Part shown: in pieces, positions 13,252-51,761 of the stretch | Position numbering within the stretch: the first letter of the stretch is position 1 | How the letters are laid out: every line of letters starts with the position of its first letter | Assembly: GCF_018881975.1 (NCBI RefSeq) | Contig: NZ_JACVPJ010000004.1 | Location: forward strand, 202,290 to 266,289 | DNA from: Polynucleobacter sp. JS-Safj-400b-B2 | GTDB lineage: Bacteria > Pseudomonadota > Gammaproteobacteria > Burkholderiales > Burkholderiaceae | Direction of reading: 5' to 3' | Length of the DNA: 64,000 nucleotides | Notes under the pieces: generated by a model | What the model was told of the DNA's origin: nothing | Database searches by the model: none | Seen by the model: only the letters and a program-made list of their open reading frames with translations | Made by a program: the position numbers and the translations under genes

Positions 13252-13262
13252 AAAATTAGTGA

Positions 13263-13334
<72 letters not shown>

Positions 13335-24281: not shown

Positions 24282-24533
24282 TTAGGAAAATGGATTTGGC
24301 TTTCTAGAGGGAGGCTTAATTTCGAGAGTCTTTGGTAGCCCAGTTACATCCTCTAATGCGTCAACACCGGCATTCACAATCTGGGCTAAGAGCTTAAGGT
24401 CAGCGAGCCCGGCCTGACTAAAATCAAAGTTATGCTGACCATAAATTTTTAACGAGTCAGAGCCGTTCTCAATGGTGATCCCGCCAATCTGGATGGATTG
24501 AGCATCGTTTTTAAAGGTAACAAATTTACTCAC
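24282..24533 (-). CDS. Small protein (83 aa) translationally coupled downstream of the secreted nuclease, a candidate inhibitor or immunity partner
   Basis: The start overlaps the nuclease stop by 8 nt. Acidic, with no signal peptide. Confidence 0.4.
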   Translation of the reverse strand: MSKFVTFKNDAQSIQIGGITIENGSDSLKIYGQHNFDFSQAGLADLKLLAQIVNAGVDALEDVTGLPKTLEIKPPSRKPNPFS

Positions 24534-28833: not shown

Positions 28834-29805
28834 TCAAATAAATAGGCTAAATTCAGGAGCATTTTTAAATCTTTCGGCCCCACCTCTCGCGTAGTCGTAG
28901 ATAACATCGCAGGCAAGCCAACGACGACCGAGTTCTTGAGCCGCTTTGGCGGTAGTAAAGGATCCCGCCATTGGGTCGACTACCAAGTCATCTTTTTGCG
29001 TCATAAATTCAATTAAGAATTTCGACATACTTAATGGGTAGCCTGCGCCATGAGCCTCGACACCCAAATCTTTAGCTGCCTTTTTATAAGCACGCTGATC
29101 TGCGCAGTTATGCGGGAAAGTGAGAAGATTGCGAGGAATCCGACCTGGTGTGGGGCTGGAGTAGCTACCTTCTTTGACCGTGTAAGCGCCGTCGGAGCTA
29201 ATTCTTTTTTGAGTAACGCCGCCAGCCTCAATGAACTTGAGGTGTTTTTCAGTATGCGGTTGCAATACTCGTCTATTGTTTGATCGGCATTCCTTTGGGT
29301 CTAAGCAAAACCAATAGATCGGCTCCCATCCGACGTTAAGCTGTTGCCGTGTTTTGCTTGCCCATTCCATTGGCCCTGGCGGCTTACAAGGGTTATGCCA
29401 AATTAATTCATCCATTTTGAAAAGGCCAAGGCGATCATGCAATGCAATTACAAGCCTCTCGCGGTATAAGCTCCGAGCAGGTAGTCCGGCGAGGAAAATG
29501 TCATTACTTAAATTCAAACAAATACTTCCACTTTTAGCCATGTTCTTGATGACGGGCTCCATGGCTGAGCAGATAAAATCGACATATTCTGATTCTGGGG
29601 GATTGCCATAGGCGCGCGGCTTACGAAGCGGGTAGGGCGGAGAAGTAAGGCAAAGATGAATTTGCTGACCATCTAGACGGCTAAAAATATCCTTACAGTC
29701 ACCCCATAAGGCGATTCCAAGATCGGTTGAAAAAGCGAGTAGTATTTTTCCAGCCTGAATCCTCTCAAATTTTTTCGGGTATCCGAGTTTTGTGGTTGAT
29801 GCTGC
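28834..29805 (-). CDS. Beta-class amino-methyltransferase (N6-adenine or N4-cytosine) whose N-terminus is interrupted by an in-frame TAA, with no canonical start codon before motif IV
   Basis: Motif IV SPPY (29622 region) precedes motif I DPMAGSFTT, the beta-class order. The conserved N-terminal ALWGDCKDIF...LTSPPY lies upstream of the only ATG (29562). An ATG at 29835 is followed by a TAA at 29806-29808 in the same frame. Confidence 0.75.
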   Translation of the reverse strand, partial: AASTTKLGYPKKFERIQAGKILLAFSTDLGIALWGDCKDIFSRLDGQQIHLCLTSPPYPLRKPRAYGNPPESEYVDFICSAMEPVIKNMAKSGSICLNLSNDIFLAGLPARSLYRERLVIALHDRLGLFKMDELIWHNPCKPPGPMEWASKTRQQLNVGWEPIYWFCLDPKECRSNNRRVLQPHTEKHLKFIEAGGVTQKRISSDGAYTVKEGSYSSPTPGRIPRNLLTFPHNCADQRAYKKAAKDLGVEAHGAGYPLSMSKFLIEFMTQKDDLVVDPMAGSFTTAKAAQELGRRWLACDVIYDYARGGAERFKNAPEFSLFI

Positions 29806-35125: not shown

Positions 35126-35401
35126 TCAATTGATGTACTGCCCAATTTTGGAATTTTGCTTGCTTCGTGTTTGATAGCGTTTTTCATAGTCCTCGGCACA
35201 CTCAACAGAGCAAAACCGACTCACCCCCTTAAATACTGGATCGGTGATTTCATCCGGACAATTTAAGCAATGAGTAAATGTCGCCTGACCTGCGGCTTCT
35301 TTTGCCTTGCGTTGGACCTCAACAAGCTGCCTGCGAGCGGCAACCTGGGCATCAATTGTGCCCTGGGCCGTATCGTTTGCCGCATCAATATCATCTGCCA
35401 T
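35126..35401 (-). CDS. TraR/DksA-family C4 zinc-finger protein
   Basis: CLNCPDEI...CSVEC four-Cys finger at the C-terminus of a roughly 90 aa helical protein. Confidence 0.6.
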   Translation of the reverse strand: MADDIDAANDTAQGTIDAQVAARRQLVEVQRKAKEAAGQATFTHCLNCPDEITDPVFKGVSRFCSVECAEDYEKRYQTRSKQNSKIGQYIN

Positions 35402-35527
35402 TTTTACCCCAATCATTTATAAGGGATTAATTTGAGCACTGCAAAAGAGGCTTGCAAGTTCAAATAATTCATTTTTATTGAGGGCATTCATTTCTCAACC
35501 CACTGTGGAAAAACAAATCATTGGGGG

Positions 35528-36517
35528 ATGATCAATCACGAAACAATCTTATCGACGCTTTACATTGCACTAAACCCCATCAAAGAATATTTGGAGGGTG
35601 ATGGCATCAATGAAATCATGATTAATCCAGGGGGCGATGTCTGGATTGAGCGAAGGGGAATGATTGAGCATATTGGCGTTTTACTCAACGAGAATCAAAT
35701 AAAATTCGCCATTTATTCGGTAGCCAAACTCACCGGTAAGGCGGCAAGCCCAGGCGATGAAAATGCGCTAGTCAACGCAGCTTTTGAAGATTTTCGTTTT
35801 GCAGGAGTGCTGCATCCCATTTCACCTGATGGAAGCACGATTTGCATTCGAAAACATCAGGATAAAAGTCAGAGGCAGACTTTTGAAGATATGATTGACT
35901 GCGCCATGATTACCCAATCTCAAGGCGATTTTATATTGGATATGTTTGTTAAAAAGCATCAAAATATCATCATCGCAGGTATTACTGGCTCGGGCAAAAC
36001 AACCCTTTTAAATGCAATTGCCGGAAAAATACCAAACCATGAACGGGTGGTTACGATTGAAGATACAAGAGAACTCCATATATCTGTGGCGAATAAAGTA
36101 TCACTGTTATCAAATGAGCTTAACAATATTCATGCGGTAGATTTGGTTAAAGAGGCTTTGCGCCTGCGCCCGGACCGGATATTGCTAGGGGAAACACGTG
36201 GGTCAGAAACATTCGACTTAATAAGGGCCTTTAATTCGGGCCACGCCGGCATATCCACTGTACATGCTAATTCAGCAGTGCTGGCCTTAGATGCGATTGA
36301 GATGCTTTATCAAATGAGCCTACCAAAAGGAGCGGGCATTAGTTCGGCAGTGGTAAGACAGTACATTGCAAAATCAGTCAACATGACTATCTATGCAAAT
36401 CGACGATATATCCCGCAGCCAGACGGCACTATTCGCGCCGTTCGTAAAGTTGAGGAAATTTGTGTAATCAAGGGGCTTGATCGCGATGGAAATTACGAGG
36501 TTGAATACATCAAATAA
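35528..36517 (+). CDS. trbB: VirB11/TrbB-family type IV secretion ATPase
   Basis: Walker A GITGSGKTT, TIEDTRE (the Asp box), Walker B RILLGETRG and the His box HAGISTVHANS. Confidence 0.8.
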   Translation: MINHETILSTLYIALNPIKEYLEGDGINEIMINPGGDVWIERRGMIEHIGVLLNENQIKFAIYSVAKLTGKAASPGDENALVNAAFEDFRFAGVLHPISPDGSTICIRKHQDKSQRQTFEDMIDCAMITQSQGDFILDMFVKKHQNIIIAGITGSGKTTLLNAIAGKIPNHERVVTIEDTRELHISVANKVSLLSNELNNIHAVDLVKEALRLRPDRILLGETRGSETFDLIRAFNSGHAGISTVHANSAVLALDAIEMLYQMSLPKGAGISSAVVRQYIAKSVNMTIYANRRYIPQPDGTIRAVRKVEEICVIKGLDRDGNYEVEYIK

Positions 36518-36646
36518 TTTTTAATTTATCAACGACCATGTAAGCACTAGTGGTCTGTGGTCGTTGCCATAAGCTGTTGATTTAAAACAAATCTCATTTT
36601 TTACAATACGACCATCGAGGGTATTTTTTTTGAAATGAAATATATA

Positions 36647-36672
36647 AACCGGGACGAATCCCGGCTTTTATG
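36647..36672. terminator. Bidirectional hairpin terminator (ccggga-cgaat-cccgg) between convergent genes
   Basis: GC stem followed by CTTTTA on the plus strand and by a T-rich tract on the minus strand. Confidence 0.5.
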
Positions 36673-36688: not shown

Positions 36689-37057
36689 CTATTGGACAAT
36701 CCAACCCGTTGGGCAAGACTGTGCGACTGGGTAGAAAGCATTTGAAGGAGGGCAGAAATAAGTTAAAGGCCGTACATTTGGGTTTGGCTGCGTAACAAAT
36801 ACTTGCGGTTGCTGTTGAATGTAAATGGCTTGTGGTTGAACGTATGCGGACGGATAGTAAGGTCCATAACTATAGCCATAAGATCCATACCCATATCCGT
36901 AAGGAGCGTATGGGCGGTAATAGGAGTTTGCTGCAATAACGGTGCCGACCATCGCCCCACCAAGCAGGGCCGCACCCCAATTTCCGCCTCCATGAGCAAA
37001 AGATGGCGATGATAATAGTCCAGTTGTTGCCAATAATGCGATTAGAATTTTTTTCAT
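36689..37057 (-). CDS. Secreted Gly/Tyr-rich protein
   Basis: Signal peptide MKKILIALLATTGLLSSPSFA, then GYGYGSYGYSYGPYY repeats. Confidence 0.45.
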   Translation of the reverse strand: MKKILIALLATTGLLSSPSFAHGGGNWGAALLGGAMVGTVIAANSYYRPYAPYGYGYGSYGYSYGPYYPSAYVQPQAIYIQQQPQVFVTQPNPNVRPLTYFCPPSNAFYPVAQSCPTGWIVQ

Positions 37058-37130
37058 TTTTCCCCAAATCAGAGTCGTTGTTGGTACCTTAACAGTATTG
37101 CCGGTGATTTTGTTGACACAAGTTAACCAT

Positions 37131-38201
37131 TTAATTAGGCGCCTCGTCCCAAGTGCGCCCATCTAGGATCCGGCCAGCCTTTTTCTTGCCGACTCTACGC
37201 ATATGCACATCGCCACGCAAAAAACGGCCATCGCATTCGCGGTCAAACCGAACATGCTCGACAATTCCACAGCGCATATCGCCACCTAAATCGCCACCGG
37301 CACGCAGTTGATCCGGGTAGTATTCTCCCCATTGTTTAAATAAGAAAGGCACATCATGTCCAATGCATTGATCACGTAAATTTTGGGCCCATGCGGGATG
37401 CATAGGCCTTGCTCCAGGCCCTGATTCTCCGCCGACAATGACCCAATCGATACCGCAGTCCCAACCGGTCCATGAGGCTTCAATCCCGCAATGTGGGCAT
37501 AAAGGGATAACTTCTCCGTTGGCAGCCAAAAATACCTCAGTAGAATCTTTATCTACATAAGGTGTATCTGGGCACACATCCATGCAGGTAATGCCGGTAG
37601 GATCGAGCCAGCGCGCAATATCGATCCTTCCTAATAGCGGCTCAATGCTCAAAAAGCGCTTTGCAGCCGGCACCTTTAATAGTTTTGGAATATCGCGATC
37701 GGCTTCCTCTTGGTTGCAGATCGTTGCCCCAATCCATACATTAGGCCAAGGCCATTGCGCGAGGGGTGAATGATTGTGTTGGCCGGTGCTACATAGGCTG
37801 TCGGGCTCCAATTCCTCAGTAGCCCGCGCAATCATAGGCTGTGCATTTCCGATGCGCTTAGTTAAAAGTAGCCAGTCTAAATTCGGTGTTTGGCGAATGA
37901 GGGCAAATAAATCCGTGCGCCAGTGGCGTGGCACTGCATTATCAAATACATCGGCCAGCGAAGCGCAAAAGACCTTGTAGCGCACACCTTTTTCACCGGC
38001 TTCTTTATTCCATTTGAGCGGCTGCTTCCAGTTGGCCTCAGTTGTTCGGCGACGCTCGGCGTTGGGGCCCCACGCAACAGAGCCACTACGCTTTGCCCAA
38101 CTCTCTGCATAACAATGATCGCAAGCGGGCGACACTTTGGCGCAACCCGTCCAGGGATTAAAGGTGTGATCACACCATTCAATAGTAGTATCTTTTGCCA
38201 T
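37131..38201 (-). CDS. Phage Gp37/Gp68-family protein
   Basis: N-terminal IEWCDHTFNPWTGC...CDHCYA Cys/His cluster and a 356 aa size. Family call from memory of the IEW(T/C)...NP..GC signature. Confidence 0.55.
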   Translation of the reverse strand: MAKDTTIEWCDHTFNPWTGCAKVSPACDHCYAESWAKRSGSVAWGPNAERRRTTEANWKQPLKWNKEAGEKGVRYKVFCASLADVFDNAVPRHWRTDLFALIRQTPNLDWLLLTKRIGNAQPMIARATEELEPDSLCSTGQHNHSPLAQWPWPNVWIGATICNQEEADRDIPKLLKVPAAKRFLSIEPLLGRIDIARWLDPTGITCMDVCPDTPYVDKDSTEVFLAANGEVIPLCPHCGIEASWTGWDCGIDWVIVGGESGPGARPMHPAWAQNLRDQCIGHDVPFLFKQWGEYYPDQLRAGGDLGGDMRCGIVEHVRFDRECDGRFLRGDVHMRRVGKKKAGRILDGRTWDEAPN

Positions 38202-38202
38202 T

Positions 38203-38925
38203 TTATTTCCGTGAATTTTGAAAATTTACGGCGCCTGTCTCGCCTTGAGTCGCCTTGCCATTAATAGGCCTAAACTCAATAACCCAGACCCAAGGGTTTG
38301 AGTCCCAGTTTCTATAAATAGAGCTCCAAAGATCACGGAATGTGTCTTTTCCATTCCCAAAAAAGCCATCGTCATTATGAGCATAGCGAGTTGCGCTAAA
38401 CACGCTTACAGCTTTTACGCCCTCAGCCATTGCATCTGCCTCGCTAATATCTTGAAGTCGCTCAATGCGTACATTGGTGATCTCTAAAGTGATGCGACTA
38501 GCAGATCTGGGCATATGGATAGATGGGTGCCATGCTGATCTTCGCTCACCGCCACCGTCATCATCCCCAGCCCATTCGTGATCGCCATCGGCGGCATAAA
38601 TCACATGACCTGTGTAGTAGCCACGCCCATGTTTAAGTTCGTGGACGTGGGTAGCTGGCCTATCAGGAGTCCACTCAATCATGTCGCCGTCTGCGTTGAT
38701 TGCATAGCTTATAACACCCCATGTCTCCCGCACCCACAAGCGATCCCCCACTTGACCATAAGGGCAGGCAAGAATTGCGTCAGGATCTTCAACGTGCCAG
38801 TTTTTATCTTTGCATTGTGCTCGACCAGATGCGTTAAGTTTTACAATACGCCTGGTTTGTGTCTTAGTGCCGTCAAGAATGGCTCTCACCATGTCGCCAT
38901 TGAATAGGATAGGACGCTCGATCAT
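38203..38925 (-). CDS. ASCH/PUA-like domain protein
   Basis: An N-terminal ILFNGDMVRAILDGTKTQTRR motif of the kind commonly seen in ASCH-domain proteins. Confidence 0.45.
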   Translation of the reverse strand: MIERPILFNGDMVRAILDGTKTQTRRIVKLNASGRAQCKDKNWHVEDPDAILACPYGQVGDRLWVRETWGVISYAINADGDMIEWTPDRPATHVHELKHGRGYYTGHVIYAADGDHEWAGDDDGGGERRSAWHPSIHMPRSASRITLEITNVRIERLQDISEADAMAEGVKAVSVFSATRYAHNDDGFFGNGKDTFRDLWSSIYRNWDSNPWVWVIEFRPINGKATQGETGAVNFQNSRK

Positions 38926-39164
38926 GCTTGCTCACCTTTAGCTTTCTTGTCGCCATCACTCACATCTAGAAAGATGGCTTTGTTTTCGCCACATACCGGG
39001 CAGCAAGCGCTCTTAAGCAATGTGGCACATTTTTCCATCGGCATTGGCAGATACGCCGCAACCCAATGGTGATCGCAAGATTTGCAAAGTACCTTTAACG
39101 GTGTTTTAGAGGGTGGTTTTTCCATTTGAAGGCTCTCCCCCGTTAATATTTTTTTAGCGCTCAC
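38922..39164 (-). CDS. Small zinc-ribbon protein
   Basis: CKSCDHH...CCPVCG Cys pairs. Overlaps both neighbours by 4 nt. Confidence 0.4.
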   Translation of the reverse strand: MSAKKILTGESLQMEKPPSKTPLKVLCKSCDHHWVAAYLPMPMEKCATLLKSACCPVCGENKAIFLDVSDGDKKAKGEQA

Positions 39165-41047
39165 GCCGCCATCTCCATAAATTGTTTATCAACATAGTTT
39201 TTCGCAACCAACGCCTGCGCGATAGGTGGGCAAACAGAATTGCCGACCATCTTCACTTGATTGGTTTTCGATAAGGGCTTGCCTTTGAACTCAAATTCAT
39301 GGATATAGCTCTCTGGAAAGCCTTGAGCTAAATAAAGCTCATGTGGTTGGAGCATGCGCATACCAATATCGACAATGACATAAGGCTCGCCATTCAGATG
39401 TACGATAACTAGACCAAACCGGTCCTTGGTTGGTATTGTGTGCAAGGGCTCATCGAGCGGTACACCATCTTTTTCATTGCCGTAATACTTGACCAGCAAT
39501 GCTCGAACCTCGCCAGCATGAGTGCCCCCAGCGGTAACGGTGTGCAATGGTGAATTTACAGGGCTGCCAACGTTATCGCCACGCAATTTGACCATGTGGC
39601 TAGTAACTAGACCTTGTGTAATTGCGGTGCCTGGTCGTTTTGGTTGGCCACCCGCAATAATGGTGTGCATCGGGGTATCAAGCTCAAAGCCAGTGCTACC
39701 AGTATTGAACTTAGTCATATGGGCAGTAACGACCGAATGATGATCAACTGTGGTGACAGTGCCGGTTGGCTTATCTAATGGCTGGCCAAGAACGCCCGTG
39801 TAATGTTTGGCCAAGAACGCCGATACAAGTGCGCGCCTATTCTCGGTGGTTTGGGTTTTTAAGGGCTCATCAAACGAAGATCCGCGCGTATCACCGGACT
39901 CAGTTTTATGGCCGTAATAGCTTGAAATATGCGCTGCCACCAGATTTTCTAACTCTTCTTCGTCTGCACCTTCATATGGAAGCTCAATTTCATCTAGTAC
40001 ATCAGAACAAGATGATTCACCACATTTTGGACATGTTGGATTTCTTTCGTAATCATCCACACCATATCGAGCGCCACAATTGTCGCAACCAAAGCGCCAA
40101 CGTCTAAGTGCGCCACTATCAGCTTTAGCTAGGGCTGGTACCACAATAGCCCTGTGATTTTCCGTGGGAACGGTACCCAGTGGTTTTAATGTTGACGATG
40201 GTTTTCCTGAATACACGGGGCCGCCTTGCCCGACAATAAATGGCTCCCCAGTCTCAATCACATAGCGCACTACACCTTTGGCTATGCGTTTAAGTGTTGA
40301 TTCAGCAAGAGGTTTCTTGCGATCAAAAATTGAAGGGCAGGGAATGGACCAGTCAATACACTCAGCTGCAGTTCGCCATTCCTTAAGCCTCTTAGGGTCA
40401 AAGCCTTTTGCCTTTGGGTTTCCATGAGTAATTTGTGGCCACTCAATTGGCATGCCATCGCAGCGAGCCACCAAAAAGAGGCGCTTGCGAATAGTTGGAG
40501 CTCCGTAGTCACTAGCGACCAAGGTTTTCCATTCAACTTGGTAGCCTAGTCTTTTTAATGCTTCAATCCATAGGTCAAAGGTTTTGCCTTTGCGTTTTTT
40601 GCATGGCATGAAGCCGCCAGTTTTTTTATCCTTAACAACAGGTCCCCAAAACTGCATTTCTTCAACGTTTTCCATCATGATTACGCGAGGGCGTACTTTG
40701 GAGGCCCAGCGAACCACCACCCAAGCAAGAGATCTCAACTGCTTGGAAACAGGGGTTCCCCCACGTGCTTTAGAAAAATGAGTGCATGACGGGCTGGCCC
40801 AGAGCAAACCAACAGGCCGACCACCGCTAGCCTCAACCGGATCAACCTCAAAAATGTCTGAGCAGTAATGCTTAGTTTGAGGGTGATTGGCTGTATGCAT
40901 GGCAATAGCTGCTTCATCATGGTTGATCGCGATATCGACTGAGCGACCGATAGCCGCTTCTATACCGGTAGATGCACCACCACCGCCTGCAAATAAATCT
41001 ACGACGAGCTCGTTATGGATGGGGAGATTAAATTGGGGTGTAAGCAT
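39161..41047 (-). CDS. DNA (cytosine-5)-methyltransferase with an enlarged variable region containing about six reiterated TRD-like modules and an internal zinc ribbon
   Basis: Motif I DLFAGGGG, motif IV ASPSCTHFS (PC), motif VI ENV (MMENVEEM). Repeated modules PLxT(V/I)xxxxHxxLVxxxxxKxxG occur at least six times. The CDNCGARYG...CPKCG segment is a Zn ribbon. Confidence 0.8.
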   Translation of the reverse strand: MLTPQFNLPIHNELVVDLFAGGGGASTGIEAAIGRSVDIAINHDEAAIAMHTANHPQTKHYCSDIFEVDPVEASGGRPVGLLWASPSCTHFSKARGGTPVSKQLRSLAWVVVRWASKVRPRVIMMENVEEMQFWGPVVKDKKTGGFMPCKKRKGKTFDLWIEALKRLGYQVEWKTLVASDYGAPTIRKRLFLVARCDGMPIEWPQITHGNPKAKGFDPKRLKEWRTAAECIDWSIPCPSIFDRKKPLAESTLKRIAKGVVRYVIETGEPFIVGQGGPVYSGKPSSTLKPLGTVPTENHRAIVVPALAKADSGALRRWRFGCDNCGARYGVDDYERNPTCPKCGESSCSDVLDEIELPYEGADEEELENLVAAHISSYYGHKTESGDTRGSSFDEPLKTQTTENRRALVSAFLAKHYTGVLGQPLDKPTGTVTTVDHHSVVTAHMTKFNTGSTGFELDTPMHTIIAGGQPKRPGTAITQGLVTSHMVKLRGDNVGSPVNSPLHTVTAGGTHAGEVRALLVKYYGNEKDGVPLDEPLHTIPTKDRFGLVIVHLNGEPYVIVDIGMRMLQPHELYLAQGFPESYIHEFEFKGKPLSKTNQVKMVGNSVCPPIAQALVAKNYVDKQFMEMAA

Positions 41048-41142
41048 GATTAGAATTCAGCGGAAAGAAAACTCATCTTCCCCTTGAAATACCATAAGTC
41101 AAACTGCCAACACTATAATTAGCACGTCGGCAAATGCATGCA

Positions 41143-41715
41143 TTAATTAACTTTGCTTACTTTGATCAAAACTTCCTTGTGATGTCCATTGATATCATTC
41201 GCAATTGCAATCTCCTCGTCCAGAGTCACAACCAGGTTTGATTCGATGCGCGTACTTTCAACTGTCGGCACTTGGACTGTCAGATCACCTACCCGCACAT
41301 CCTTCATGCTTAGTAATTTAGATGTAAGCATCTCAAACTTTAAATTTAGATGACGATTATCAAGCCGGTCTCCGCGCTCCAAAGAAGTCCAGATGGTGTT
41401 GCCGACTTGCAAGTCCTTGTAATGCGATGATTCATGCGCGACCCCGCCAGCCTCTACAGTTGATAAGCTGGAGTCAAGATAACCAATTGTTTGACCAGTT
41501 TGAGTGATGCCTTTTCGACCATCCGCAAGTGTCAAGATGGTGAAATCACTATCGATGATCCCATTTTCCATGATGCTGATACGAACTGCATATTGTTCCG
41601 CATTGTTTTTGGTTAGCTTATCTGGCTCATGGCATTTATCTGCGCTCGCAGCCCCAGAAAATAGGGTCATTGCTAAAAACATTGGGCCAAAAAAACTAAT
41701 TGATGTCGCCTTCAT
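41143..41715 (-). CDS. Secreted hypothetical protein
   Basis: Start chosen at MKATSISFFGPMFLAMTLFSGAASA, a signal peptide. Confidence 0.4.
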   Translation of the reverse strand: MKATSISFFGPMFLAMTLFSGAASADKCHEPDKLTKNNAEQYAVRISIMENGIIDSDFTILTLADGRKGITQTGQTIGYLDSSLSTVEAGGVAHESSHYKDLQVGNTIWTSLERGDRLDNRHLNLKFEMLTSKLLSMKDVRVGDLTVQVPTVESTRIESNLVVTLDEEIAIANDINGHHKEVLIKVSKVN

Positions 41716-41948
41716 CTGAAATTTCCTTTTTAGTGAACTAACCAGTTGGTTATTCACTACTTTAAGGATTTTTTCGCGACAAATATTACGGAGTTCTAGT
41801 AAATATTTCACGCAATAAGAGAATCGTTGGCTTGAATTTATTGCTCTTAATCCAAATTACTCAATTATTTACCAGTATTCGTTAATCAATGGAGGCTCTT
41901 GGTTAGCAAAATAAAACGGTCACCAATACACGAATTAAGGACCGTTAT

Positions 41949-42281
41949 ATGAATGCCATTGCACTTACATCGCCACAATTAAAAAGATTCTTTCAAAAGA
42001 TGTCGTGGCCGATCATAGGCTTTATTGGGCTCTTAATGATGGGCGTTGATGTCGCTAACGCACAGGGAATCAACACTGCCGCTTTTTGCTTTTTTATCAA
42101 CAACTTCAAGCTAATCATTGCTGCAGTAGCAGTCATCGCCTTAATGGTTTGGGGCGCAATGTACATGATGAAAAAAGCAGATATAGCCGATGTTGGGTTA
42201 TATATTATTTCGGCTTGCGTACTCGTTGGTGCCGCGGGTGCAATCATTATGAATACCGGTTTAATGCCCCCTAGCTGTTAA
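41949..42281 (+). CDS. VirB2/TrbC-like conjugative pilin
   Basis: A 110 aa protein with a long leader and two hydrophobic segments, immediately upstream of VirB3/VirB4 homologues. Confidence 0.5.
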   Translation: MNAIALTSPQLKRFFQKMSWPIIGFIGLLMMGVDVANAQGINTAAFCFFINNFKLIIAAVAVIALMVWGAMYMMKKADIADVGLYIISACVLVGAAGAIIMNTGLMPPSC

Positions 42282-42297
42282 TAGAGCATTAGTAGAT

Positions 42298-42633
42298 ATG
42301 CTCAGAAACTCTTATGTTTACAAGGCACTTTCAAGAACGCACTTGGTTTTGGGAATTCCTGTAAAAATATTGGCCATTATTTGGTCAATTGCCTCCTTCA
42401 CAATCCTAGGTCTGTGGGTGGCTAAAGCATTGACTTGGTGGGATTGTATTGGCGTGCTAGCCATATTTTGGGCTATCCACAATCTGATTGCAGTCCAATT
42501 TGATAAGGATTCATTAATAGACAAGATTTATAAAATCTATTCAACAACCAAAGACCACTACCACCCAGAGTCCCGCATCTTAGATCGCATGCATGAGCGC
42601 CCAAGTAAATACGGCAGAGGCGTGCGATGCTAG
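42298..42633 (+). CDS. VirB3/TrbD-like protein
   Basis: A 111 aa protein with two TM helices. Its stop overlaps the VirB4 start. Confidence 0.5.
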   Translation: MLRNSYVYKALSRTHLVLGIPVKILAIIWSIASFTILGLWVAKALTWWDCIGVLAIFWAIHNLIAVQFDKDSLIDKIYKIYSTTKDHYHPESRILDRMHERPSKYGRGVRC

Positions 42634-45164
42634 GCCTTCGATTTAAAGATAAAGAAGTTGCCGGACCGGTACAGGAGGTCTGCCCATGGTTAGATTTTAT
42701 TAACCCTGAAATGATCCTATGCAAAGACGGTTCATTGCTTGCTGGCTTTGAATTTAATGGCGTAGACATTGAAAACGCTACCGATGAGCATAAAAATGCG
42801 GTAGTCAACGAGCTTCAAAGAGCTTATCAAGGGTTTGATAACAGAGATACGCTAACCTGGGTGTTTGACAAAAAGCGATCGTACAGCTATCCAGAAAATA
42901 TCTTTCTCAATCCAATCTCCAAAAGAATTGATGACCTGTACTCCGAGCCATTTCGGCAGGGTTACTACTTTACCCTCTCAAATCGCCTGTATTACCTTTA
43001 TACGGGCAAGGCCGGTATTGCGCGATTTATGGATACGTTCGCAAGAGAGACTGAAAAAAACGGAAAAAATGCATTAACGGCATTGCTTTTAGCCGCAAAG
43101 GACTCTCTAACCGGAAGAATTAGCTATGAAATCGATGGGCAGCAAATCATGCATAACATCGAGCAATTTGAGCGCCGTCTTACGCAGTTCTTAGTTCAAA
43201 CTCCGTCGATTAAATGGAAAAGGCTTGGGTATGAGGATTTAAAAAATGCTCTTTCAATGCAAATCAATCCAGCCTCAATCAACCACACAGCCAAAAAACC
43301 ATTTGGTCAAATGCTTGACTCATGGTTACCTAGTAATACGGTTACGCCCGGATCTGACATTATCCGATTTGATGGAGCTGGACGGACAAAGTACATGAGC
43401 ATTATTGGCATAAAGGAATGGCCAAACTTAACTCACCCTGACCTAATGGGTAAGTTAATGGAGATTGATACCGAAGTTACCGTTTGCCAGACTATGCGAT
43501 TTCTGGGTCATAAAGGGACGCAAGCCAAGCTAAATGATGCGGTAGATTTTTACAAGCTAACCCAAGTTGGGATCATAAAAAACGCCATCGCCAAGCTGAC
43601 TAAGAAACCCCCTGAACCTGACCCGGGCAAATATGAATTATATGCAGAATGCGTTCAGGCTCTAGCCAGACTTGAGGTTGATAACATTCAGTACGGATAC
43701 CACACCATGGCCGTGTGTACTAGTGCCGAATCAAAGAAAGAGCTTGCTCAGTCAGTAGAAAACATCAGCACAGTTCTGAGTCGAAACTTTCAAATCATTG
43801 CTGAAAGCATGAATGCTTTCGCCTCATGGGCAGCGACATTGCCGGGGCAGTGGGCTATGCAGTCACGCTGGTCATTGGTGAGCAATGAGAATTTGGCTGA
43901 TATTTCCCCGATTTTCACTATTAATCATAGACCCAAAAATAATGGAGCATTTGAAGAAATGCTCGGCAAAAAAGCTAATGCACTTTGCGTGTTTAATGAT
44001 ATTTACGGTGGAGTTGAATATTTTAATAGTCATGTTGACCAAGTGGGGCACGCCATCATTATTGCACCAACAGGGGGCGGCAAAACCACCATTGTAAACC
44101 TAGCTTTATCACAATTTCAGAAATACACGAAGGATGGCAAAGAGCCAAATACGATTGTTTTTGATAGGGACTATTCGGTTCGCATAACCGCCAAGCTTCA
44201 GGATGCATCGCACATTGACTTAAAGTCTGGTCGCATTCGAATGAACCCATTAATGGCGCTCTTTGACGATGATGCAAATTCCAACGAGGAAAAAACCAAC
44301 ACAAAAGACGACTCCAATCAAGAAATCTCATCTACAACAAATGGGTTCTTATGGTGCAGGGATTTTGTGGGACGAAGAATTGAGGCAAATGGATACAAGC
44401 TAACTGCCGAGGACATTAAATCAATAGATGATGGGCTTTTAATGCTTAAGGGGTCGCCAGCTCAAAAGCCAAGATTATCTAAGTTGGCAATATTGCTGCC
44501 AAAGCATTTGGCGGCTGAGTTAGGGGAGTGGCTAGAAGGTCGTCCATTTGGCATGTTTGATTCCGAGGATGATGAGTTCTCCCTAAGCTCATTTACTTGC
44601 ATTGAAATGAAAGAGTTTTTGGAAAACGAAAGATTGGCCCAAGCCTTCTTGGATTATGCATTTCGCAAGGTTTATTCGAAGCTGGATGGTAGGCCAACCT
44701 TTATCTACATTGAAGAGGCATCATTCCTACTCAATCATCCTACGTTCCAAAAAATGCTCGATGACTGGTTAAAAACATTTCGCAAAAAAGGGGCATTTGT
44801 TTGGATGGCCGTTCAATCGCCAACGTCAATTGTCAACGCAGAGATAGCGGCCAGCATTACGGATAACGTTAAAACCAAAATATTGCTATTCAATAAATCA
44901 GCTGAAGCCCATCGTGATTCATATAAGAAGTATTTTGGACTTGATGATTATCAAGTTGACAGAATTGCAAGTTTAGTAAAAAAACGCGATTACTACATTA
45001 TTTCAGATGGCGAGGCACGCACAGTTCAAACCCAGTTTTCAAAAGAATGTCTTGCCTATTTGAGATCTGAACAGCATTTGCAGAATATTTACGACGCCAC
45101 ATACAGCCCAGATGATGATAGCTGGAAAGAAAAATATATTGAAAAGGTCATGGTGCTTAAGTGA
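42627..45164 (+). CDS. trbE: VirB4/TrbE-family conjugative transfer ATPase
   Basis: An 845 aa protein with Walker A IIAPTGGGKTT and Walker B-like FIYIEEASFL. The gene context is pilin-VirB3-VirB4. Confidence 0.8.
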   Translation: MLGLRFKDKEVAGPVQEVCPWLDFINPEMILCKDGSLLAGFEFNGVDIENATDEHKNAVVNELQRAYQGFDNRDTLTWVFDKKRSYSYPENIFLNPISKRIDDLYSEPFRQGYYFTLSNRLYYLYTGKAGIARFMDTFARETEKNGKNALTALLLAAKDSLTGRISYEIDGQQIMHNIEQFERRLTQFLVQTPSIKWKRLGYEDLKNALSMQINPASINHTAKKPFGQMLDSWLPSNTVTPGSDIIRFDGAGRTKYMSIIGIKEWPNLTHPDLMGKLMEIDTEVTVCQTMRFLGHKGTQAKLNDAVDFYKLTQVGIIKNAIAKLTKKPPEPDPGKYELYAECVQALARLEVDNIQYGYHTMAVCTSAESKKELAQSVENISTVLSRNFQIIAESMNAFASWAATLPGQWAMQSRWSLVSNENLADISPIFTINHRPKNNGAFEEMLGKKANALCVFNDIYGGVEYFNSHVDQVGHAIIIAPTGGGKTTIVNLALSQFQKYTKDGKEPNTIVFDRDYSVRITAKLQDASHIDLKSGRIRMNPLMALFDDDANSNEEKTNTKDDSNQEISSTTNGFLWCRDFVGRRIEANGYKLTAEDIKSIDDGLLMLKGSPAQKPRLSKLAILLPKHLAAELGEWLEGRPFGMFDSEDDEFSLSSFTCIEMKEFLENERLAQAFLDYAFRKVYSKLDGRPTFIYIEEASFLLNHPTFQKMLDDWLKTFRKKGAFVWMAVQSPTSIVNAEIAASITDNVKTKILLFNKSAEAHRDSYKKYFGLDDYQVDRIASLVKKRDYYIISDGEARTVQTQFSKECLAYLRSEQHLQNIYDATYSPDDDSWKEKYIEKVMVLK

Positions 45165-48195: not shown

Positions 48196-49848
48196 ATGAG
48201 AAAATTAATCACGCATAAGATATTTGTAGCAATTGTCATTGGGGCAGGGTCTTTGGCGACCCTTTCAGGCTGCTCATCAATGATCGTATCAGGGGTAAGA
48301 TCCGACGTTCAAAAAGTGGGTAATGAGGCCGCTTTAGCACAGGCAACCCTGCAAAAGGGTGCCGCGAAAGAATATAACAATAATGTGGAAGTTCTTGATG
48401 AGCAATGGGTGCCATCGAGAAAAATTAAGAAAAAAATTAAAATTCATGAAATTGATCATCAAATTTTGGTTAACAAAACGGCACAATCCTTGCATGATTT
48501 AACAAATTATTTAACATCAATCACGAAAATACCATTTTACGTAGATATTCAGACCCCGCAAAGTGGACAGGTAACCGCGACCTTACCAGGGCAAATTCAT
48601 TTACAAGATTCCGCACCCAGTCCGCAAGCTCTAGGTAATGCGGTTAATGCAGCAAACGATTACGATCGAATTAACCCAAAACAAATTACCTATTCTGGAG
48701 GGTTTGAGGATTTTTTAAATACCACTCTACCAACCTATGGGTACCATTGGGAGTTTCAGTCTGAAAGTGGAGCTATTCGACTTTTTAAATATCAAACTAG
48801 AACATTTCGCATTGCAGCCCTTCCTGGTGATGTTAATTTTCAAAGCAATATAGGCAATACAGCCACAAATGCCTCTGCCGGATCTTCAGGGGGCGTCGCT
48901 CAATCAGGGGGTGGTGGGATAGCCTCAACCTCGTCACAAAAGACAGGCGTAACGTCAGCAGTTTCTATTTGGAACTCAATTGAGAGTGCCGTTAAGTCTA
49001 TGCTGTCGCCTTCAGGCAAGGCGGTAATGTCATCCGCAACAGGAACAATTACCGTCACCGACTTGCCAACGGTAGTGGGTGATATTGCGAAATATATTGA
49101 AGGTCAAAATGAATCGCTCTCCAAAGAAGTTGTAATTAATGTTCGAGTACTATCTGTGGATGTAAAAAATGTAGATAGCTATGGTATCAACTGGAATGCA
49201 GTGGCCAATTCTGCGTCAAGGCTTTCTGGAGTATTGGCAACGAGCTTTGCGCCCATCTCATCAGGCGGCAGCCTTACAACTACCATTCCAGCATCAGCAA
49301 ATGGTGCTGCAGCCGGAAGCTCTGCCATCATTACGGCGCTATCGGAGCAAGGGGATGTATCCGAGCTTACATCAACATCTGTGACAACGCTAAACAATCA
49401 GCCGGCACCAACTCAGGTTGGTTCGCAAATTGCCTATCTGCAGTCGTCAACCACAACCCTCACAGCAAATGTGGGGACAACGACCACCCTTGTACCGGGC
49501 ACCATAAATGTCGGCTATGCATTAAATGTAGTGCCGCACATCATGGATAACGACGATCTGCTCTTGCAGTACTCCATGGATATTTCAACCCTGGTTAATA
49601 TGGTCCAGGTCACGTCGGGCACGTCAACAATTCAAACGCCAACAATTGATTCAAAAAATTTGTTTAATCGAGTTAAGCTAAAGTCCGGCGAAACCTTGGC
49701 ATTATCTGGGTTCGAAAAAATTACCTCATCGGCAGACTCGAGCGGAATAGGCTCAGCCGATAATTTACTGGCTGGCGGCAATGTGAACGGAACAAAATCT
49801 AAATCAGTTCTAGTTGTCTTAATCCAGCCCATTGTTGTTGGGAAGTAA
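48196..49848 (+). CDS. Secretin-family lipoprotein (R64 PilN / TcpC / BfpB-like)
   Basis: Lipobox LSGCSS and a C-terminal secretin-like block GETLALSGF...GIGSADNLLAGG...SVLVVLIQPIVV. Confidence 0.55.
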   Translation: MRKLITHKIFVAIVIGAGSLATLSGCSSMIVSGVRSDVQKVGNEAALAQATLQKGAAKEYNNNVEVLDEQWVPSRKIKKKIKIHEIDHQILVNKTAQSLHDLTNYLTSITKIPFYVDIQTPQSGQVTATLPGQIHLQDSAPSPQALGNAVNAANDYDRINPKQITYSGGFEDFLNTTLPTYGYHWEFQSESGAIRLFKYQTRTFRIAALPGDVNFQSNIGNTATNASAGSSGGVAQSGGGGIASTSSQKTGVTSAVSIWNSIESAVKSMLSPSGKAVMSSATGTITVTDLPTVVGDIAKYIEGQNESLSKEVVINVRVLSVDVKNVDSYGINWNAVANSASRLSGVLATSFAPISSGGSLTTTIPASANGAAAGSSAIITALSEQGDVSELTSTSVTTLNNQPAPTQVGSQIAYLQSSTTTLTANVGTTTTLVPGTINVGYALNVVPHIMDNDDLLLQYSMDISTLVNMVQVTSGTSTIQTPTIDSKNLFNRVKLKSGETLALSGFEKITSSADSSGIGSADNLLAGGNVNGTKSKSVLVVLIQPIVVGK

Positions 49849-49853
49849 ATACC

Positions 49854-51113
49854 ATGCAAGTATTTAAACTGCTTGGGAAATCCATGGTGGCCGGCTTGAA
49901 TTGGGAGCCGCTACCAATAGAAATAGAGGCTGGCACAAAAAAATATATTCAAAAGTTGGCGGAAGAGCAAGATTTTAATCTCTATACGCTAATCAAGGGG
50001 GTTGAAACGCAAACTGGGTTTGCTTCGTCACATGAAAAATTATCCGGCAAGTATTCAATAGCGTCAATATTGTTTCAAGTGTTTAGTGGCTCAGAACACT
50101 CAAGGGATATAGCTGCAATATTAGAAATTCACCCCGATTCGTATCTTTACTACGGACAAAAGGATGGGTTAATACTGTATGACGGAGATCTGGCCGGCAG
50201 TAGGCAAGATGCCCTAGATAGACTCAATTCACATATTGCTTTATACGGCCCATTTGAAGTCCTATATGCACCGGAATCGCTAGAGATTGAAAATTCAACC
50301 CATGCCACTTTTGAAACTATTCTTGGAGATTCGTTTTTCTCTCTACGACGATTGGTTGGATTATCGCAGGCAAGGGTTCGCCCCTGTTTTCTAGATAAAA
50401 AAAGAAGGAATACTTATATAGTGATTGGGATTTTGGCCGTAATTTTATTGGCCGCCAGCTCCAGAGGTTTCGTAATCTACCAAGCAAATGAGGCAGCCGC
50501 TAGGCTACAGTTAGAGCAAGAGCGCATTTCAAAAGCCATGGAAGAAAACGCACCTAAGCCAATTTATCAAACATTACCAACATCTTATGAAATGGTTAGC
50601 GCATGTTTAAGTCTGATAAATGAACATGATCTTATTTTTCCAAATTGGAACTTGGTAGCAATTGAATGCAGTCAAAGCGGTATGGTTGCCAGCCTTACAA
50701 AAAGCGATGAGGGGCGCTACGAAGATTTAATTTCCAAGTATCCAGATTCGATTGTAAACCTTGCGGCCAACACAGCCACAATCAAAATTAGCCAAATCGT
50801 TACCGCGAATTATGTGGGAAAAATTACCCTACCAAGCATGAGTGATGTTTATTTAAATACCGACAAAGCAATATCGTATGGCATTGAAATGAAATACAAA
50901 CCAGCAGCCTCATCTGTGAATCTTCCTGGGCAGGATTTAATCCCAAAAAAAGTAGCCGAACTAGATTGGATTATTGATAAAACACCATTCACGCCAGACA
51001 GGGTAATTGACCTCATGGATAACAGTGGATTGCGAATTTCAAAAATCACCAAAATATTTGGTGCAAATGGTTCCTCATGGAGCCTTGAAGGAACTCAGTA
51101 TGCCCAGCAATAA
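49854..51113 (+). CDS. Type IVb pilus biogenesis protein (PilO/BfpC-like; cytoplasmic domain, single TM, periplasmic domain)
   Basis: A 419 aa protein with a central TM (YIVIGILAVILLAASS) and a position that matches PilO in R64-type clusters. Confidence 0.35.
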   Translation: MQVFKLLGKSMVAGLNWEPLPIEIEAGTKKYIQKLAEEQDFNLYTLIKGVETQTGFASSHEKLSGKYSIASILFQVFSGSEHSRDIAAILEIHPDSYLYYGQKDGLILYDGDLAGSRQDALDRLNSHIALYGPFEVLYAPESLEIENSTHATFETILGDSFFSLRRLVGLSQARVRPCFLDKKRRNTYIVIGILAVILLAASSRGFVIYQANEAAARLQLEQERISKAMEENAPKPIYQTLPTSYEMVSACLSLINEHDLIFPNWNLVAIECSQSGMVASLTKSDEGRYEDLISKYPDSIVNLAANTATIKISQIVTANYVGKITLPSMSDVYLNTDKAISYGIEMKYKPAASSVNLPGQDLIPKKVAELDWIIDKTPFTPDRVIDLMDNSGLRISKITKIFGANGSSWSLEGTQYAQQ

Positions 51114-51750: not shown

Positions 51751-51761
51751 AGAAAACTTTT

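Follow-up and report, generated by a model that had tools for sequence, protein, structure and literature searches.

A phage-type orphan C5-cytosine methyltransferase with a six-unit repeat array on a Trb-type conjugative element of Polynucleobacter

Introduction

The closest described counterparts of the enzyme analysed here are those of SPR, phi3T, rho11s and H2, which are likewise phage-borne orphan C5-cytosine DNA methyltransferases (MTases) with a single catalytic core. Their variable region is enlarged in a similar way by several segments in tandem that all bear the signature [SA][PT]-T-[LIV]-T, and these target-recognition domains (TRDs) measure about 40-50 aa. M.HhaI possesses a single T-L hairpin ahead of motif IX, with Thr250 (...ITLSAYGGG...GGYLV...RKLHPRE). 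Up to seven specificities have been reported for M.BceSV (BCE_0393), an m5C MTase encoded by a prophage of Bacillus cereus ATCC 10987 (PMC3459991), and the overlap of its motif list with those of SPR-type enzymes suggests that it is of the SPR type. Nuclease-less MTases are also present on conjugative IncA/C plasmids, where dcm1-3 were proposed to serve the crossing of restriction barriers; clean motifs were left undefined in that study (PMC6555945).

We analysed an MTase locus in a 64,000-nt stretch of Polynucleobacter DNA (the whole of which is called the window below). A preliminary description had interpreted this enzyme as carrying about six TRD-like repeats that likely protect a transferring element against many restriction systems. 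Our analysis confirms what was observed there and supports the interpretation only in part.

Results

The MTase gene belongs to an operon inserted between trbB and trbC of a T4SS element, both in the window and in another sampled locus, L004, where the flank on the trbC to trbE side is arranged alike. The features of the locus are as follows.

35528..36517, plus strand: TrbB/VirB11-type ATPase, one flank of the insertion (PF00437, E 5e-39)
36646..36667, no strand given: bidirectional terminator-like hairpin that separates the operon from trbB
36689..37162, minus strand: Gly/Tyr-rich ORF of 157 aa with a signal-peptide-like segment, the last gene of the transcription unit
37131..38201, minus strand: DUF5131 (Gp37/Gp68) protein, 356 aa (PF07505, E 2e-90; phrog_2045)
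38203..38925, minus strand: ASCH-like protein, 240 aa (phrog_874, E 1.4e-79)
38922..39164, minus strand: CxxC...CCxxC zinc-ribbon ORF, 80 aa, whose start overlaps the MTase stop (GTGA)
39161..41047, minus strand: C5-cytosine DNA MTase gene, 628 aa (PF00145 and TIGR00675)
41050..41076, minus strand: 8-codon upstream ORF, MSFLSAEF and stop, with the SD-like sequence AAGGGGAAG; its stop lies 2 nt ahead of the MTase ATG
41143..41811, minus strand: upstream ORF of 222 aa, within the insertion that separates trbB from trbC
41949..45164, plus strand: TrbC/VirB2 pilin, VirB3-like ORF and TrbE/VirB4 ATPase, the other flank (PF04956, PF03135)

The junctions between the MTase, zinc-ribbon, 240-aa and DUF5131 genes are 4-nt overlaps (GTGA/ATGA type) or abutting, and the 157-aa ORF shares 32 nt with the DUF5131 gene. 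Searches of Pfam, phrog and PADLOC returned no family match for the 157-aa and 222-aa ORFs, each of which is 99% identical in L004. The 8-codon ORF is unchanged in L004, and its CTGAATTC end is common to a 67-aa ORF of locus L021; it is probably both what is left of the small ORF found ahead of the MTase gene on plasmids and a site of translational coupling. The 80-aa zinc-ribbon ORF gave only weak sub-threshold matches in Pfam, none of the neighbours compared at the nine other sampled loci is homologous to it, and in L004 its place is taken by an unrelated 183-aa ORF.

The tight four-gene layout and the Gp37/Gp68 assignment of the preliminary description held up, whereas its ASCH label appears valid at the family level only and is weak for the protein of the window. 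The 240-aa protein itself has no Pfam match, and PF04266 (ASCH) is matched by 26 of 50 relatives (best E 1.3e-5); the protein has 44,489 representative relatives. Homologues adjoin the MTase in L004, L015 and L017, and also in L021, where the gene is broken. The DUF5131 protein carries C20-x6-C27-x2-C30 at its N-terminus plus an inserted Cys cluster, and matches PADLOC PDC-M41B and M30B; other copies are 87% identical in L005 and 50% identical in L016. DUF5131 is a subgroup of the radical-SAM superfamily at RadicalSAM.org (PMC9477430). Across the ten sampled loci, ASCH-like genes lie next to the MTase in five and DUF5131 genes in four. The association of the MTase with these two genes is genuine but not tight, and the four-gene module as a whole shows only loose conservation.

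No restriction-endonuclease-like protein was detected in the operon with Pfam, NCBIfam or PADLOC. The MTase matches phrog_116 and has full-length homologues of 43-47% identity in many phages, in keeping with the phage-type orphan proposed previously. Prophage homologues lie in recombination/early regions, and plasmid homologues adjoin SprT-like and N6/N4 orphan MTase genes. The window MTase is a nuclease-less orphan of phage type, carried by a conjugative element of the Trb type in Polynucleobacter. Its parts, all on the minus strand, are listed from the N-terminus.

40448..41047: catalytic core with motifs I-VIII, aa 1-200 (sequence; 3g7u alignment)
40238..40447: family-specific conserved block behind motif VIII, aa 201-270 (...WRTAAECIDWSIPCPSIF..KPLAESTLKRIAKG...EPFIV)
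40130..40192: unit 1 (type A), first half, aa 286-306, TLKPLGTVPTENHRAIVVPAL (unit HMM, aa 285-308)
39929..40129: 67-aa insertion in unit 1, aa 307-373, a C4 zinc ribbon with an acidic stretch behind it, net charge -9
39875..39928: unit 1 (type A), second half, aa 374-391, ISSYYGHKTESGDTRGSS, aligned to ...LIQTGYGERPGQAPR of insertion-free relatives
39779..39874: unit 2 (type B, by clustering), aa 392-423 (unit HMM E 1e-11)
39680..39778: unit 3 (type E), aa 424-456, loop VDHHS (unit HMM E 9e-13)
39557..39679: unit 4 (type F), aa 457-497, long loop GGQPKRPGTAITQG (unit HMM E 1e-08)
39455..39556: unit 5 (type C), aa 498-531, ...GGTHAGEVRALLVKYYG (unit HMM E 2e-09)
39359..39454: unit 6 (type D), aa 532-563, canonical hairpin into motif IX (unit HMM E 1.5e-08)
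39164..39358: catalytic core with motifs IX-X, aa 564-628 (sequence; pLDDT 84-93)

The MTase is complete and every catalytic motif is intact. Its sequence is 100% identical to that of a protein from Polynucleobacter sp. JS-Safj-400b-B2. It matches PF00145 (E 3e-34) and TIGR00675 (E 2.6e-30), and the Dcm-like motifs reported earlier were all recovered: DLFAGGGG (aa 17-24), SPSCTHFS (85-92) and ENV (126-128), along with RKR (187-189) and, towards the C-terminus, RMLQPHELYLAQGFP (564-578) and GNSVCPP (602-608). Core residues 1-200 were modelled by AlphaFold2 with pLDDT 85-97 apart from a loop at aa 89-101, and the modelled core matches structures of DNMT1, MET1 and M.HaeIII. Motif IV reads SPSC, the canonical form being P-P-C, and we counted this P-S-C against the reading preferred below. 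The block at aa 201-270 has a commonest-residue fraction of 0.72 over 90 relatives; its pLDDT ranges from ~62 to 96, peaks at aa 201-230 and declines toward 270.

At least six reiterated modules had been claimed for the enlarged variable region, and six tandem units were recovered. They follow the signature P-x-x-T-[VI]...L-V...K-x-x-G over ~38 residues, with P..T[VIQ] at aa 289, 395, 427, 459, 500 and 534. Their mean pairwise local score is 35.3 against 17.3 +/- 0.95 for shuffled units (z ~19), and the extended unit pattern occurs six times where 0.12 is expected, with a maximum of two in 2000 shuffles. The Thr is invariant across 52 aligned units, which also share a second framework block, LV.A.L.K.YG. 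In unit 3, conservation is at least 90% at D435 and H436. The residues G, T, S, P and N make up 40% of the array and hydrophobic residues 33%. AlphaFold2 predicted strands at aa 547-551 and 554-558 of unit 6, whereas aa 385-545 had pLDDT 24-47 and no secondary structure in either of two runs.

The embedded CDNC...CPKC ribbon was found as described, with its cysteines arranged as C321-x2-C324 ... C339-x2-C342, and was modelled at pLDDT ~70 as a pair of short strands plus a helix. A 67-aa ribbon insertion is present in four of the 120 closest relatives; a different ribbon is substituted in P0004 and P0005 has none. The ribbon is a recent, subclade-limited insertion outside the design of the family.

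The repeats, for which HMM searches had been suggested, are a family-wide element present in at least 8000 protein clusters, the majority of which come from phages, prophages or plasmids. Proteins carry 3-9 units, and their length follows ~339 + 38.1 aa per unit (r = 0.76, 240 proteins). Clustering defined seven unit types in a colinear order, A(0-5)-B-E-(F)-(G)-C-D, of which the window has A-B-E-F-C-D. In longer relatives, extra F/G units are inserted at the slot of the window's unit 4, and type C is penultimate in nearly all of the architectures listed. Every full-length member sampled had at least three units; the smallest members, such as a phi105-like enzyme, have exactly three, which together approximate a canonical single TRD in size.

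Conservation was scored over 90 relatives, each at most 66% identical. Units B (0.74), C (0.68) and D (0.69) are comparable to the core (0.70), and unit F scores 0.31 with 45% gaps; A, E and F units are variable or optional in the family. Position-specific invariant residues include P395, T398, D435, H436, G508, H510, R543 and G545. We also compared 146 pairs of enzymes with cores at least 90% identical, for which identity was 0.57 in A units, 0.75-0.87 in other units and 0.93 in the core. The A slot is therefore a hot spot of divergence between near-identical enzymes, as is the F/G slot in some pairs. Differences among P0001, P0004 and P0005 are confined to the A slot and ribbon, and P0068 and P0106 have cassettes replaced in two slots and the same B, E, C and D units. 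The sole natural unit-deletion variant, P0003, lies in a decaying locus.

Discussion

We favor, with a probability of about 0.55, a composite recognition domain built from repeats, with a constant scaffold and exchangeable cassettes, in an anti-restriction orphan predicted to be active as a solitary C5-cytosine DNA MTase. The recognition region would be one ordered A-B-E-F-C-D array of ~38-aa units, not six independent TRDs, and each unit would duplicate the hairpin that precedes motif IX in ordinary C5-MTases, consisting of P-x-x-T-[VI]-T, a loop and an L-V strand. Units B, C, D and usually E would form the constant scaffold, and the A slot (in some relatives also the F/G slot) would be a cassette open to exchange, by which target specificity is set or tuned; in the window copy, the A unit has gained the 67-aa zinc ribbon with its acidic tail. 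The array would fold into one enlarged recognition domain, probably on DNA. One or two exchangeable recognition cassettes fit the variation better than six, because near-identical enzymes vary mainly in the A slot and sometimes in F/G. The variable slots would then carry specificity, target motifs would be few (one or two, not six) and six independent specificities are unlikely. Lacking a cognate nuclease, the MTase would methylate the DNA of element and host, and this methylation would shield the element from m5C-blocked restriction after transfer, giving it a presumed anti-restriction role.

Alternatively, most or all units might be autonomous mini-TRDs that dock in turn on the single core and recognize several unrelated motifs, which we regard as rather unlikely. 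Units of 32-41 aa are close to SPR-type TRDs in size, P..T[VIL] is kept in every unit as in the TRDs of SPR, rho11s and H2, unit number ranges from 3 to 9, near-identical enzymes swap cassettes, and alternative docking could account for the low AlphaFold2 confidence. The prophage enzyme BCE_0393 offers a precedent with its up to seven specificities (PMC3459991). The step from six TRDs to many specificities is nevertheless not supported, given the core-level conservation of B, C and D over wide phylogenetic distances, the opposite of what specificity-determining TRDs present. Nor is free modularity of the units supported, given their fixed order, or the equation of one unit with one TRD, given the absence of sampled full-length members with fewer than three. 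Moreover, the units resemble each other throughout, including LV.A.L.K.YG, their profile does not significantly match SPR-type TRDs, and the only natural deletion comes from the decaying P0003 locus. The invariant Thr of each unit and a unit size near the ~40 aa of SPR-type TRDs also suit autonomous mini-TRDs, and we record them as observations against the composite reading. Conversely, the repeats might be a flexible, mostly disordered linker or tether, with recognition left to the aa 201-270 block and unit D. The unstructured prediction for aa 385-545 and the abundance of G, T, S, P and N agree with this, but the composition is not of low complexity, as a linker had been expected to show, a third of the residues are hydrophobic, and B, C and D retain invariant positions at the level of the catalytic core. 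The low AlphaFold2 confidence may stem from a shallow alignment thrown out of register by variable unit number, and we consider a linker quite improbable.

Two further hypotheses concern the role of the enzyme and not its architecture. It could act as an epigenetic regulator or maintenance factor for host or element, since regulatory orphan m5C MTases such as VchM exist (PMC4654547, PMC8559950), and the gene sits within a T4SS cluster and not in a recognizable leading region. The chances of this are small, given that the family is overwhelmingly phage- or plasmid-borne, often near other orphan MTases and SprT-like genes, and that a mosaic hypervariable cassette suits an arms race better than regulation. 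It is very doubtful that the MTase acts first in a DNA-modification or defence module of several enzymes, with DUF5131 and ASCH-like proteins acting on or sensing the 5mC it makes. Such a module would be in line with the tight operon, with an ASCH-like, PUA-like putative reader of modified bases beside half of the sampled MTases, and with DUF5131, a radical-SAM superfamily member (PMC9477430) that PADLOC includes in its candidate systems PDC-M30 and PDC-M41, beside four of ten. However, about half of the sampled loci lack each gene, order and neighbours vary, the ASCH assignment is weak in the window, and no other operon protein matched PADLOC, so that a PDC-M30/M41 partner was not detected here. 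Genes of these kinds are frequent in the early regions of phages, where they assort independently.

The composite reading can be compared with known systems at several levels. The likeness to SPR and phi3T noted previously stands for the T-[VI] signature of every unit, but profile homology does not extend past the last hairpin: in a search of three to four sequences, the unit profile matched SPR, rho11s and H2 TRDs at that hairpin only (E 0.008-0.23). There, unit D resembles EPAFTVNTIDRHGVA...RKLTPLE of SPR, rho11s and H2, as a comparison of DEPAFTVNTIDRHGVA with DEPLHTIPTKDRFGLV illustrates. SPR-type TRDs share little beyond T-[LIV], whereas the window units are mutually similar and have a second framework block. 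Unlike the SPR type, three of its six units are conserved like the core, the order is fixed and the family reaches nine units; motif IV is SP[SD]C in the window family and SPCQ in SPR. Multispecificity is proven for SPR-type enzymes. In the window family we found no experimentally characterized member and none with a measured specificity, and the layout is common to thousands of such uncharacterized phage and plasmid enzymes. M.BceSV shows that the proposed multispecific biology exists; the ATCC 10987 accession is absent among the B. cereus-group family members found. IncA/C dcm1 is probably outside the family, because Enterobacterial (Klebsiella, Escherichia, Salmonella) plasmids are absent among the repeat-region matches listed.

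No solved structure covers the array. The unit profile did not match the TRDs of solved C5-MTases, a comparison of low power with a 33-position profile, nor a sequence of M.HhaI. Unit D corresponds to the pre-motif-IX hairpin of M.HhaI as its topological counterpart. M.HhaI, M.HaeIII and the prophage CP-933R MTase 3g7u share the catalytic fold and motif order of the window MTase, but solved monospecific C5-MTases possess one small TRD of ~80-100 aa, whereas the window enzyme devotes ~290 aa (271-563) to six hairpin copies and a ribbon.

Identity of the methyltransferase

The 628-aa protein encoded at window positions 39161-41047 (reverse strand) is predicted to be an active C5-cytosine DNA methyltransferase with intact catalytic motifs. 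It matches PF00145 (E 3e-34, 119 bits against a cutoff of 22) and TIGR00675 (106 bits against a cutoff of 100.65), and motifs I (FxGxG), IV, VI (ENV), VIII (RxR), IX and X (GN[SA]V) are all present and in order, which upholds the preliminary description of a Dcm-like C5-methylase. The enzyme class is already well known, and the protein, whose 100% identical database entry is from Polynucleobacter sp. JS-Safj-400b-B2, is annotated simply as 'DNA cytosine methyltransferase'. AlphaFold2 modeled its core as a class-I methyltransferase fold (pLDDT >85), for which Foldseek returned DNMT1, MET1, M.HaeIII and 3g7u (E 1e-14 to 1e-11). The canonical motif IV of C5-methyltransferases is P-P-C. Unlike this canonical form, the family has the Pro just before the catalytic Cys replaced throughout: motif IV reads S-P-S-C-T-H-F-S in the window enzyme (aa 85-92; window 40772-40795, reverse strand) and SPDC or SPEC in its relatives, actinophage enzymes included, with P-D-C in most of them.

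Reiterated units and the zinc ribbon

The variable region contains six reiterated P..T[VI] modules, as the preliminary description had reported, with P..T[VIQ] starts at aa 289, 395, 427, 459, 500 and 534. Their mean pairwise local score was 35.3 against 17.3 +/- 0.95 for shuffled units (z about 19), and the extended repeat pattern occurs 6 times against 0.12 expected. The unit consensus is [ld]-x-P-[lm]-x-T-[VI]-t-[at], a loop, and then h-a-L-V-x-a-h-l-x-K-[yfh]-x-G; across 52 aligned units from 16 proteins the Thr is invariant and the Pro is present in more than 90%, with pairwise identities between units of 19-78%. The possibility that these repeats are low-complexity linker was not supported by their composition: the region is 33% hydrophobic, rich in Thr, Gly and His and of net charge about +1.

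The family is very large: at the 90% identity level it comprises 8000 clusters or more among the candidates scored, and three separate searches each gave all 8000 of these an E < 1e-20. Phages of Burkholderia, Ralstonia, Aeromonas, Citrobacter, Pectobacterium, Myxococcus, Pseudomonas, Vibrio, Bacillus and others encode full-length relatives, and more than 120 plasmids carry family members; no nucleotide-level relatives were found on plasmids. The unit profile, run as the HMM search that had been proposed for the repeats, detected 3 to 9 units family-wide (three in a phi105-like enzyme, eight in BgManors32 and up to nine in others). Protein length follows approximately 339 + 38.1 aa per unit (r = 0.76, 240 proteins), which indicates that the variable region is essentially made of units. 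Every full-length member sampled had three units or more, and three units together come close to a canonical TRD in size. One relative, P0003 (plasmid-like locus L021, 3183-5270), has lost 79 aa in a clean in-frame deletion that removes units 2 and 3 and half of unit 4. The adjoining ASCH-like gene in L021 is split into ORFs of 73 and 90 aa and the locus is apparently decaying; we therefore rejected P0003 as proof that units are dispensable.

The embedded CDNC...CPKC ribbon was also confirmed. It consists of C321-x2-C324 ... C339-x2-C342 followed by an acidic tail, and it lies within a 67-aa insertion (aa 307-373, net charge -9) that interrupts unit 1 between IVVPAL and ISSYYGHK. A CxxC...CxxC ribbon is present in 4 of the 120 closest relatives; among proteins that are 89-97% identical in the aligned regions, P0004 has another ribbon and P0005 has none. 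We consider the window's zinc ribbon to be a recent, lineage-specific insertion. A distant actinophage relative, Gordonia phage Floral gp65 (L019, 292-1866; 29% identity), has about five P..T[VI] units and a CxxC...CxxxxC insertion of its own that follows motif VIII, at a site unlike that of the window ribbon, so that such Cys-rich insertions recur at different sites in the wider clade.

Unit types, order and conservation

We typed 1470 units by Louvain communities; single-linkage clustering was dropped because it chained all units together. Seven types were recovered, and they follow a strict colinear order, A(0-5)-B-E-(F)-(G)-C-D. AABECD, BEFGCD and ABECD are the most frequent architectures, and the window enzyme is ABEFCD. 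Conservation was computed both as the commonest-residue fraction across 90 relatives no more than 66% identical and as the identity within 146 close pairs, defined by catalytic N-cores that share 90% identity or more.

Conservation by segment of the methyltransferase
Catalytic core: commonest-residue fraction 0.70; close-pair identity 0.93
Unit B: commonest-residue fraction 0.74
Unit C: commonest-residue fraction 0.68
Unit D: commonest-residue fraction 0.69; close-pair identity 0.87
Linker and first half of unit A: commonest-residue fraction 0.54
Unit A: close-pair identity 0.57
Unit E: commonest-residue fraction 0.40 (low mostly through presence/absence gaps)
Unit F: commonest-residue fraction 0.31 (low mostly through presence/absence gaps)
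Units B, E, F, G and C: close-pair identity 0.75-0.81

Alignments of individual relatives locate the variation. Between P0068 and P0106, the A slot and the slot after E are replaced and units B, E, C and D are identical; among P0001, P0004 and P0005 the differences are confined to the A slot. Discrete slot replacement among constant units is the pattern that would be expected of specificity cassettes in a constant scaffold. The preliminary description had counted about six TRD-like repeats, and this pattern of conservation and exchange is not that of six equivalent TRDs.

Two AlphaFold2 runs, with alignments of 50 and 95 sequences, were confident for the core, for the family-specific block aa 201-270 (tapering towards aa 270) and for the final hairpin, and reached about 70 for the ribbon. 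Neither run gave a fold for aa 385-545 (window 39413-39895), which may reflect a shallow, out-of-register alignment or a region that is ordered only on DNA. This stretch includes units B, C and D, which are conserved as strongly as the catalytic core. We found no solved structure covering the repeat array. The unit profile matched no C5-methyltransferase among PDB sequences, a low-power test that says nothing against homology, nor did it match M.HhaI.

Operon and mobile element

The methyltransferase ORF is followed by these features:

38922-39164, reverse strand: Zn-ribbon ORF (CxxC...CCxxC), 80 aa
38203-38925, reverse strand: ASCH-like ORF, 240 aa
37131-38201, reverse strand: DUF5131 ORF, 356 aa
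36689-37162, reverse strand: fifth ORF, overlapping the DUF5131 ORF
36646-36667: terminator-like hairpin after the fifth ORF

At the junctions of the first four ORFs, start and stop overlap by 4 nt or abut. Together with the overlapping fifth ORF and the terminator-like hairpin, this packing makes the proposed co-transcription plausible. Across loci the four-gene module is conserved only loosely. An 8-codon upstream ORF (MSFLSAEF and a stop; window 41050-41085, reverse strand) with a strong SD-like AAGGGGAAG ends 2 nt before the methyltransferase ATG. It is identical in the metagenomic relative L004, and its 3' end matches the end of a 67-aa ORF that precedes the methyltransferase in plasmid locus L021. 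The small ORF looks like a recombination remnant that may have retained translational coupling.

The neighbours of the methyltransferase are the Zn-ribbon, ASCH-like and DUF5131 ORFs and two unknown secreted-type ORFs. The expected Gp37/Gp68 protein is the 356-aa ORF, which matches PF07505 at E 2e-90. It has an N-terminal C20-x6-C27-x2-C30 and a second Cys cluster (C206, C210 ... C234, C237) within insertions that add approximately 110 aa to the Pfam model. DUF5131 is listed as a subgroup of the radical-SAM superfamily (PMC9477430), past which we found nothing on it in the literature. The protein matches the B component of the PADLOC candidates PDC-M30 (M30B) and PDC-M41 (M41B), and no other operon protein matched a partner component. 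The 240-aa ORF belongs to phrog_874, a huge family with 44,489 representative relatives. The window protein itself has no ASCH match in Pfam at E up to 0.1 and no match by sequence to solved structures; the label 'ASCH-like' is acceptable at the family level because 26 of 50 relatives match ASCH (PF04266) weakly (best E 1.3e-5). Neither Pfam nor PADLOC identified a restriction-endonuclease-like protein in the operon, where two secreted-type neighbours are of unknown family and the sole defence-model match is that of DUF5131 to PDC-M30B/M41B; this agrees with the reported lack of a cognate endonuclease.

The block sits between trbB/virB11 (35528-36517) and trbC-virB3-trbE (41949-45164), in the orientation opposite to these genes, and L004 has exactly the same insertion arrangement. 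Other relatives are found on TrfA/ParM plasmids, where a SprT-like gene and then a small ORF precede the methyltransferase gene, and in prophages, amid the recombination genes YqaJ, ERF, SSB and RdgC. We sampled ten loci (the window, L001-L003, L004, L005, L015-L018 and L021). An ASCH-like homologue adjoins the methyltransferase in five (the window, L004, L015, L017 and L021, where it is split in two), DUF5131 is nearby in four (the window, L004, L005 at 87% identity, and L016), and the 80-aa Zn-ribbon ORF is confined to the window. The 226-aa gene downstream of the L005 methyltransferase proved unrelated to the ASCH-like ORF. An orphan N6/N4 methyltransferase is often near the family enzyme. 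The neighbour genes are recurrent, independently assorting occupants of anti-restriction or early regions in phages and plasmids and form no obligate system.

Further features of the window are the following:

26681-28498, reverse strand: SNF2-family helicase with DpdE/ZorD-like PADLOC matches, directly beside the N6_N4_Mtase
28834-29562, reverse strand: N6_N4_Mtase, 242 aa, nuclease-less-looking
2222-3271: ParM-like actin
4611-5675: weak integrase-like ORF
11739-12890: ATP-dependent DNA ligase
13261-13335: tRNA-Met
22915-24177: DUF1173
24526-25317: secreted-type non-specific endonuclease
48196-53219: secretin and T2SSE ATPase cluster

With the N6_N4_Mtase besides the C5-methyltransferase, the element carries at least two methyltransferases. 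Further mobile-element cargo occupies 2222-25317 and 48196-53219. A 96-aa ORF adjoining trbB (35126-35416, reverse strand) ends in HCLNCPDE...FCSVEC, a four-Cys TraR/DksA-like zinc-finger pattern, and has no Pfam match.

Discussion

The window's conjugative element carries a C5-methyltransferase with intact catalytic motifs, no nuclease found beside it, and an array of units in set order, in which some positions are constant and others exchangeable. We propose, with a probability of about 0.55 for the combined reading, that the units of the array together make up a single enlarged recognition domain on DNA, in which units B, E, C and D would serve as scaffold and the A slot (here with the zinc ribbon) and the F/G slot would set target specificity. 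The enzyme would then methylate one or a few motifs and thereby shield the element from m5C-blocked restriction after transfer. Alternatively, the units could be autonomous or semi-autonomous mini-TRDs on one catalytic core, conferring true multispecificity. This has precedent in the SPR-type enzymes and in M.BceSV/BCE_0393, which shields against enzymes of seven specificities (PMC3459991). We regard it as unlikely: the units are mutually similar and fixed in order, three of the six are near-invariant, and full-length enzymes with fewer than three of them were not seen.

For the window alone the significance is modest: a conjugative element that carries yet another orphan methylase, one bearing a zinc-ribbon insertion specific to its lineage. 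To our knowledge, m5C methyltransferases are the least characterised bacterial methyltransferases, since m5C is hard to detect by SMRT sequencing. The unit grammar of this family and the ribbon insertion appear undescribed in the literature searched. Seven unit types in fixed order with one or two exchangeable slots make a simple, countable recognition architecture; if the variable slots set specificity, the family would be a natural library for studying how C5-methyltransferase recognition evolves by cassette exchange, and for engineering. Were the units independent TRDs instead, the family would be a new, dominant class of multispecific anti-restriction enzymes, a second and independently evolved solution far commoner than the SPR/phi3T type. 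The target motifs could then be read off from which optional units (A, F, G) an enzyme carries and how many, and thousands of natural unit-swap variants would be available for working out the rules of recognition.

No characterised family member was found in the literature on methyltransferases. M.BatI was discarded as a different, small methyltransferase, and IncA/C dcm1 is probably outside the family. M.BceSV/BCE_0393 is a good functional precedent for a multispecific m5C methyltransferase, likened by function and not by sequence. No ATCC 10987 accession occurs in the B. cereus-group clusters of the family; phBC6A51 proved to be the prophage of ATCC 14579 and lacks a methyltransferase.

The likeness to the SPR/phi3T enzymes held in part. 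The window enzyme and SPR, rho11s and H2 all have a variable region of contiguous segments, each with a T-[LIV] signature; in the sequences that we retrieved, every TRD segment of SPR, rho11s and H2 carries [SA][PT]-T-[LI]-T. Homology of the TRD sequences themselves was not recovered past one element: the last hairpin of these enzymes, DEPAFTVNTIDRHGVA...RKLTPLE, clearly resembles unit D and is the only part of SPR, rho11s and H2 that the unit HMM aligned (E 0.008-0.23 in a search of 3-4 sequences). In the SPR type, TRDs are expected to be the least conserved segments and mutually dissimilar, whereas units B, C and D are conserved like the core. Unlike the SPR group, the units are also similar to one another, fixed in order, near-invariant in three of six cases and present at least three at a time in each full-length member sampled. 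The match limited to the last hairpin and the shared T-[LIV] signature therefore place the window enzyme outside the SPR group, with a similar design principle, that of tandem T-[LIV] hairpins on one catalytic core.
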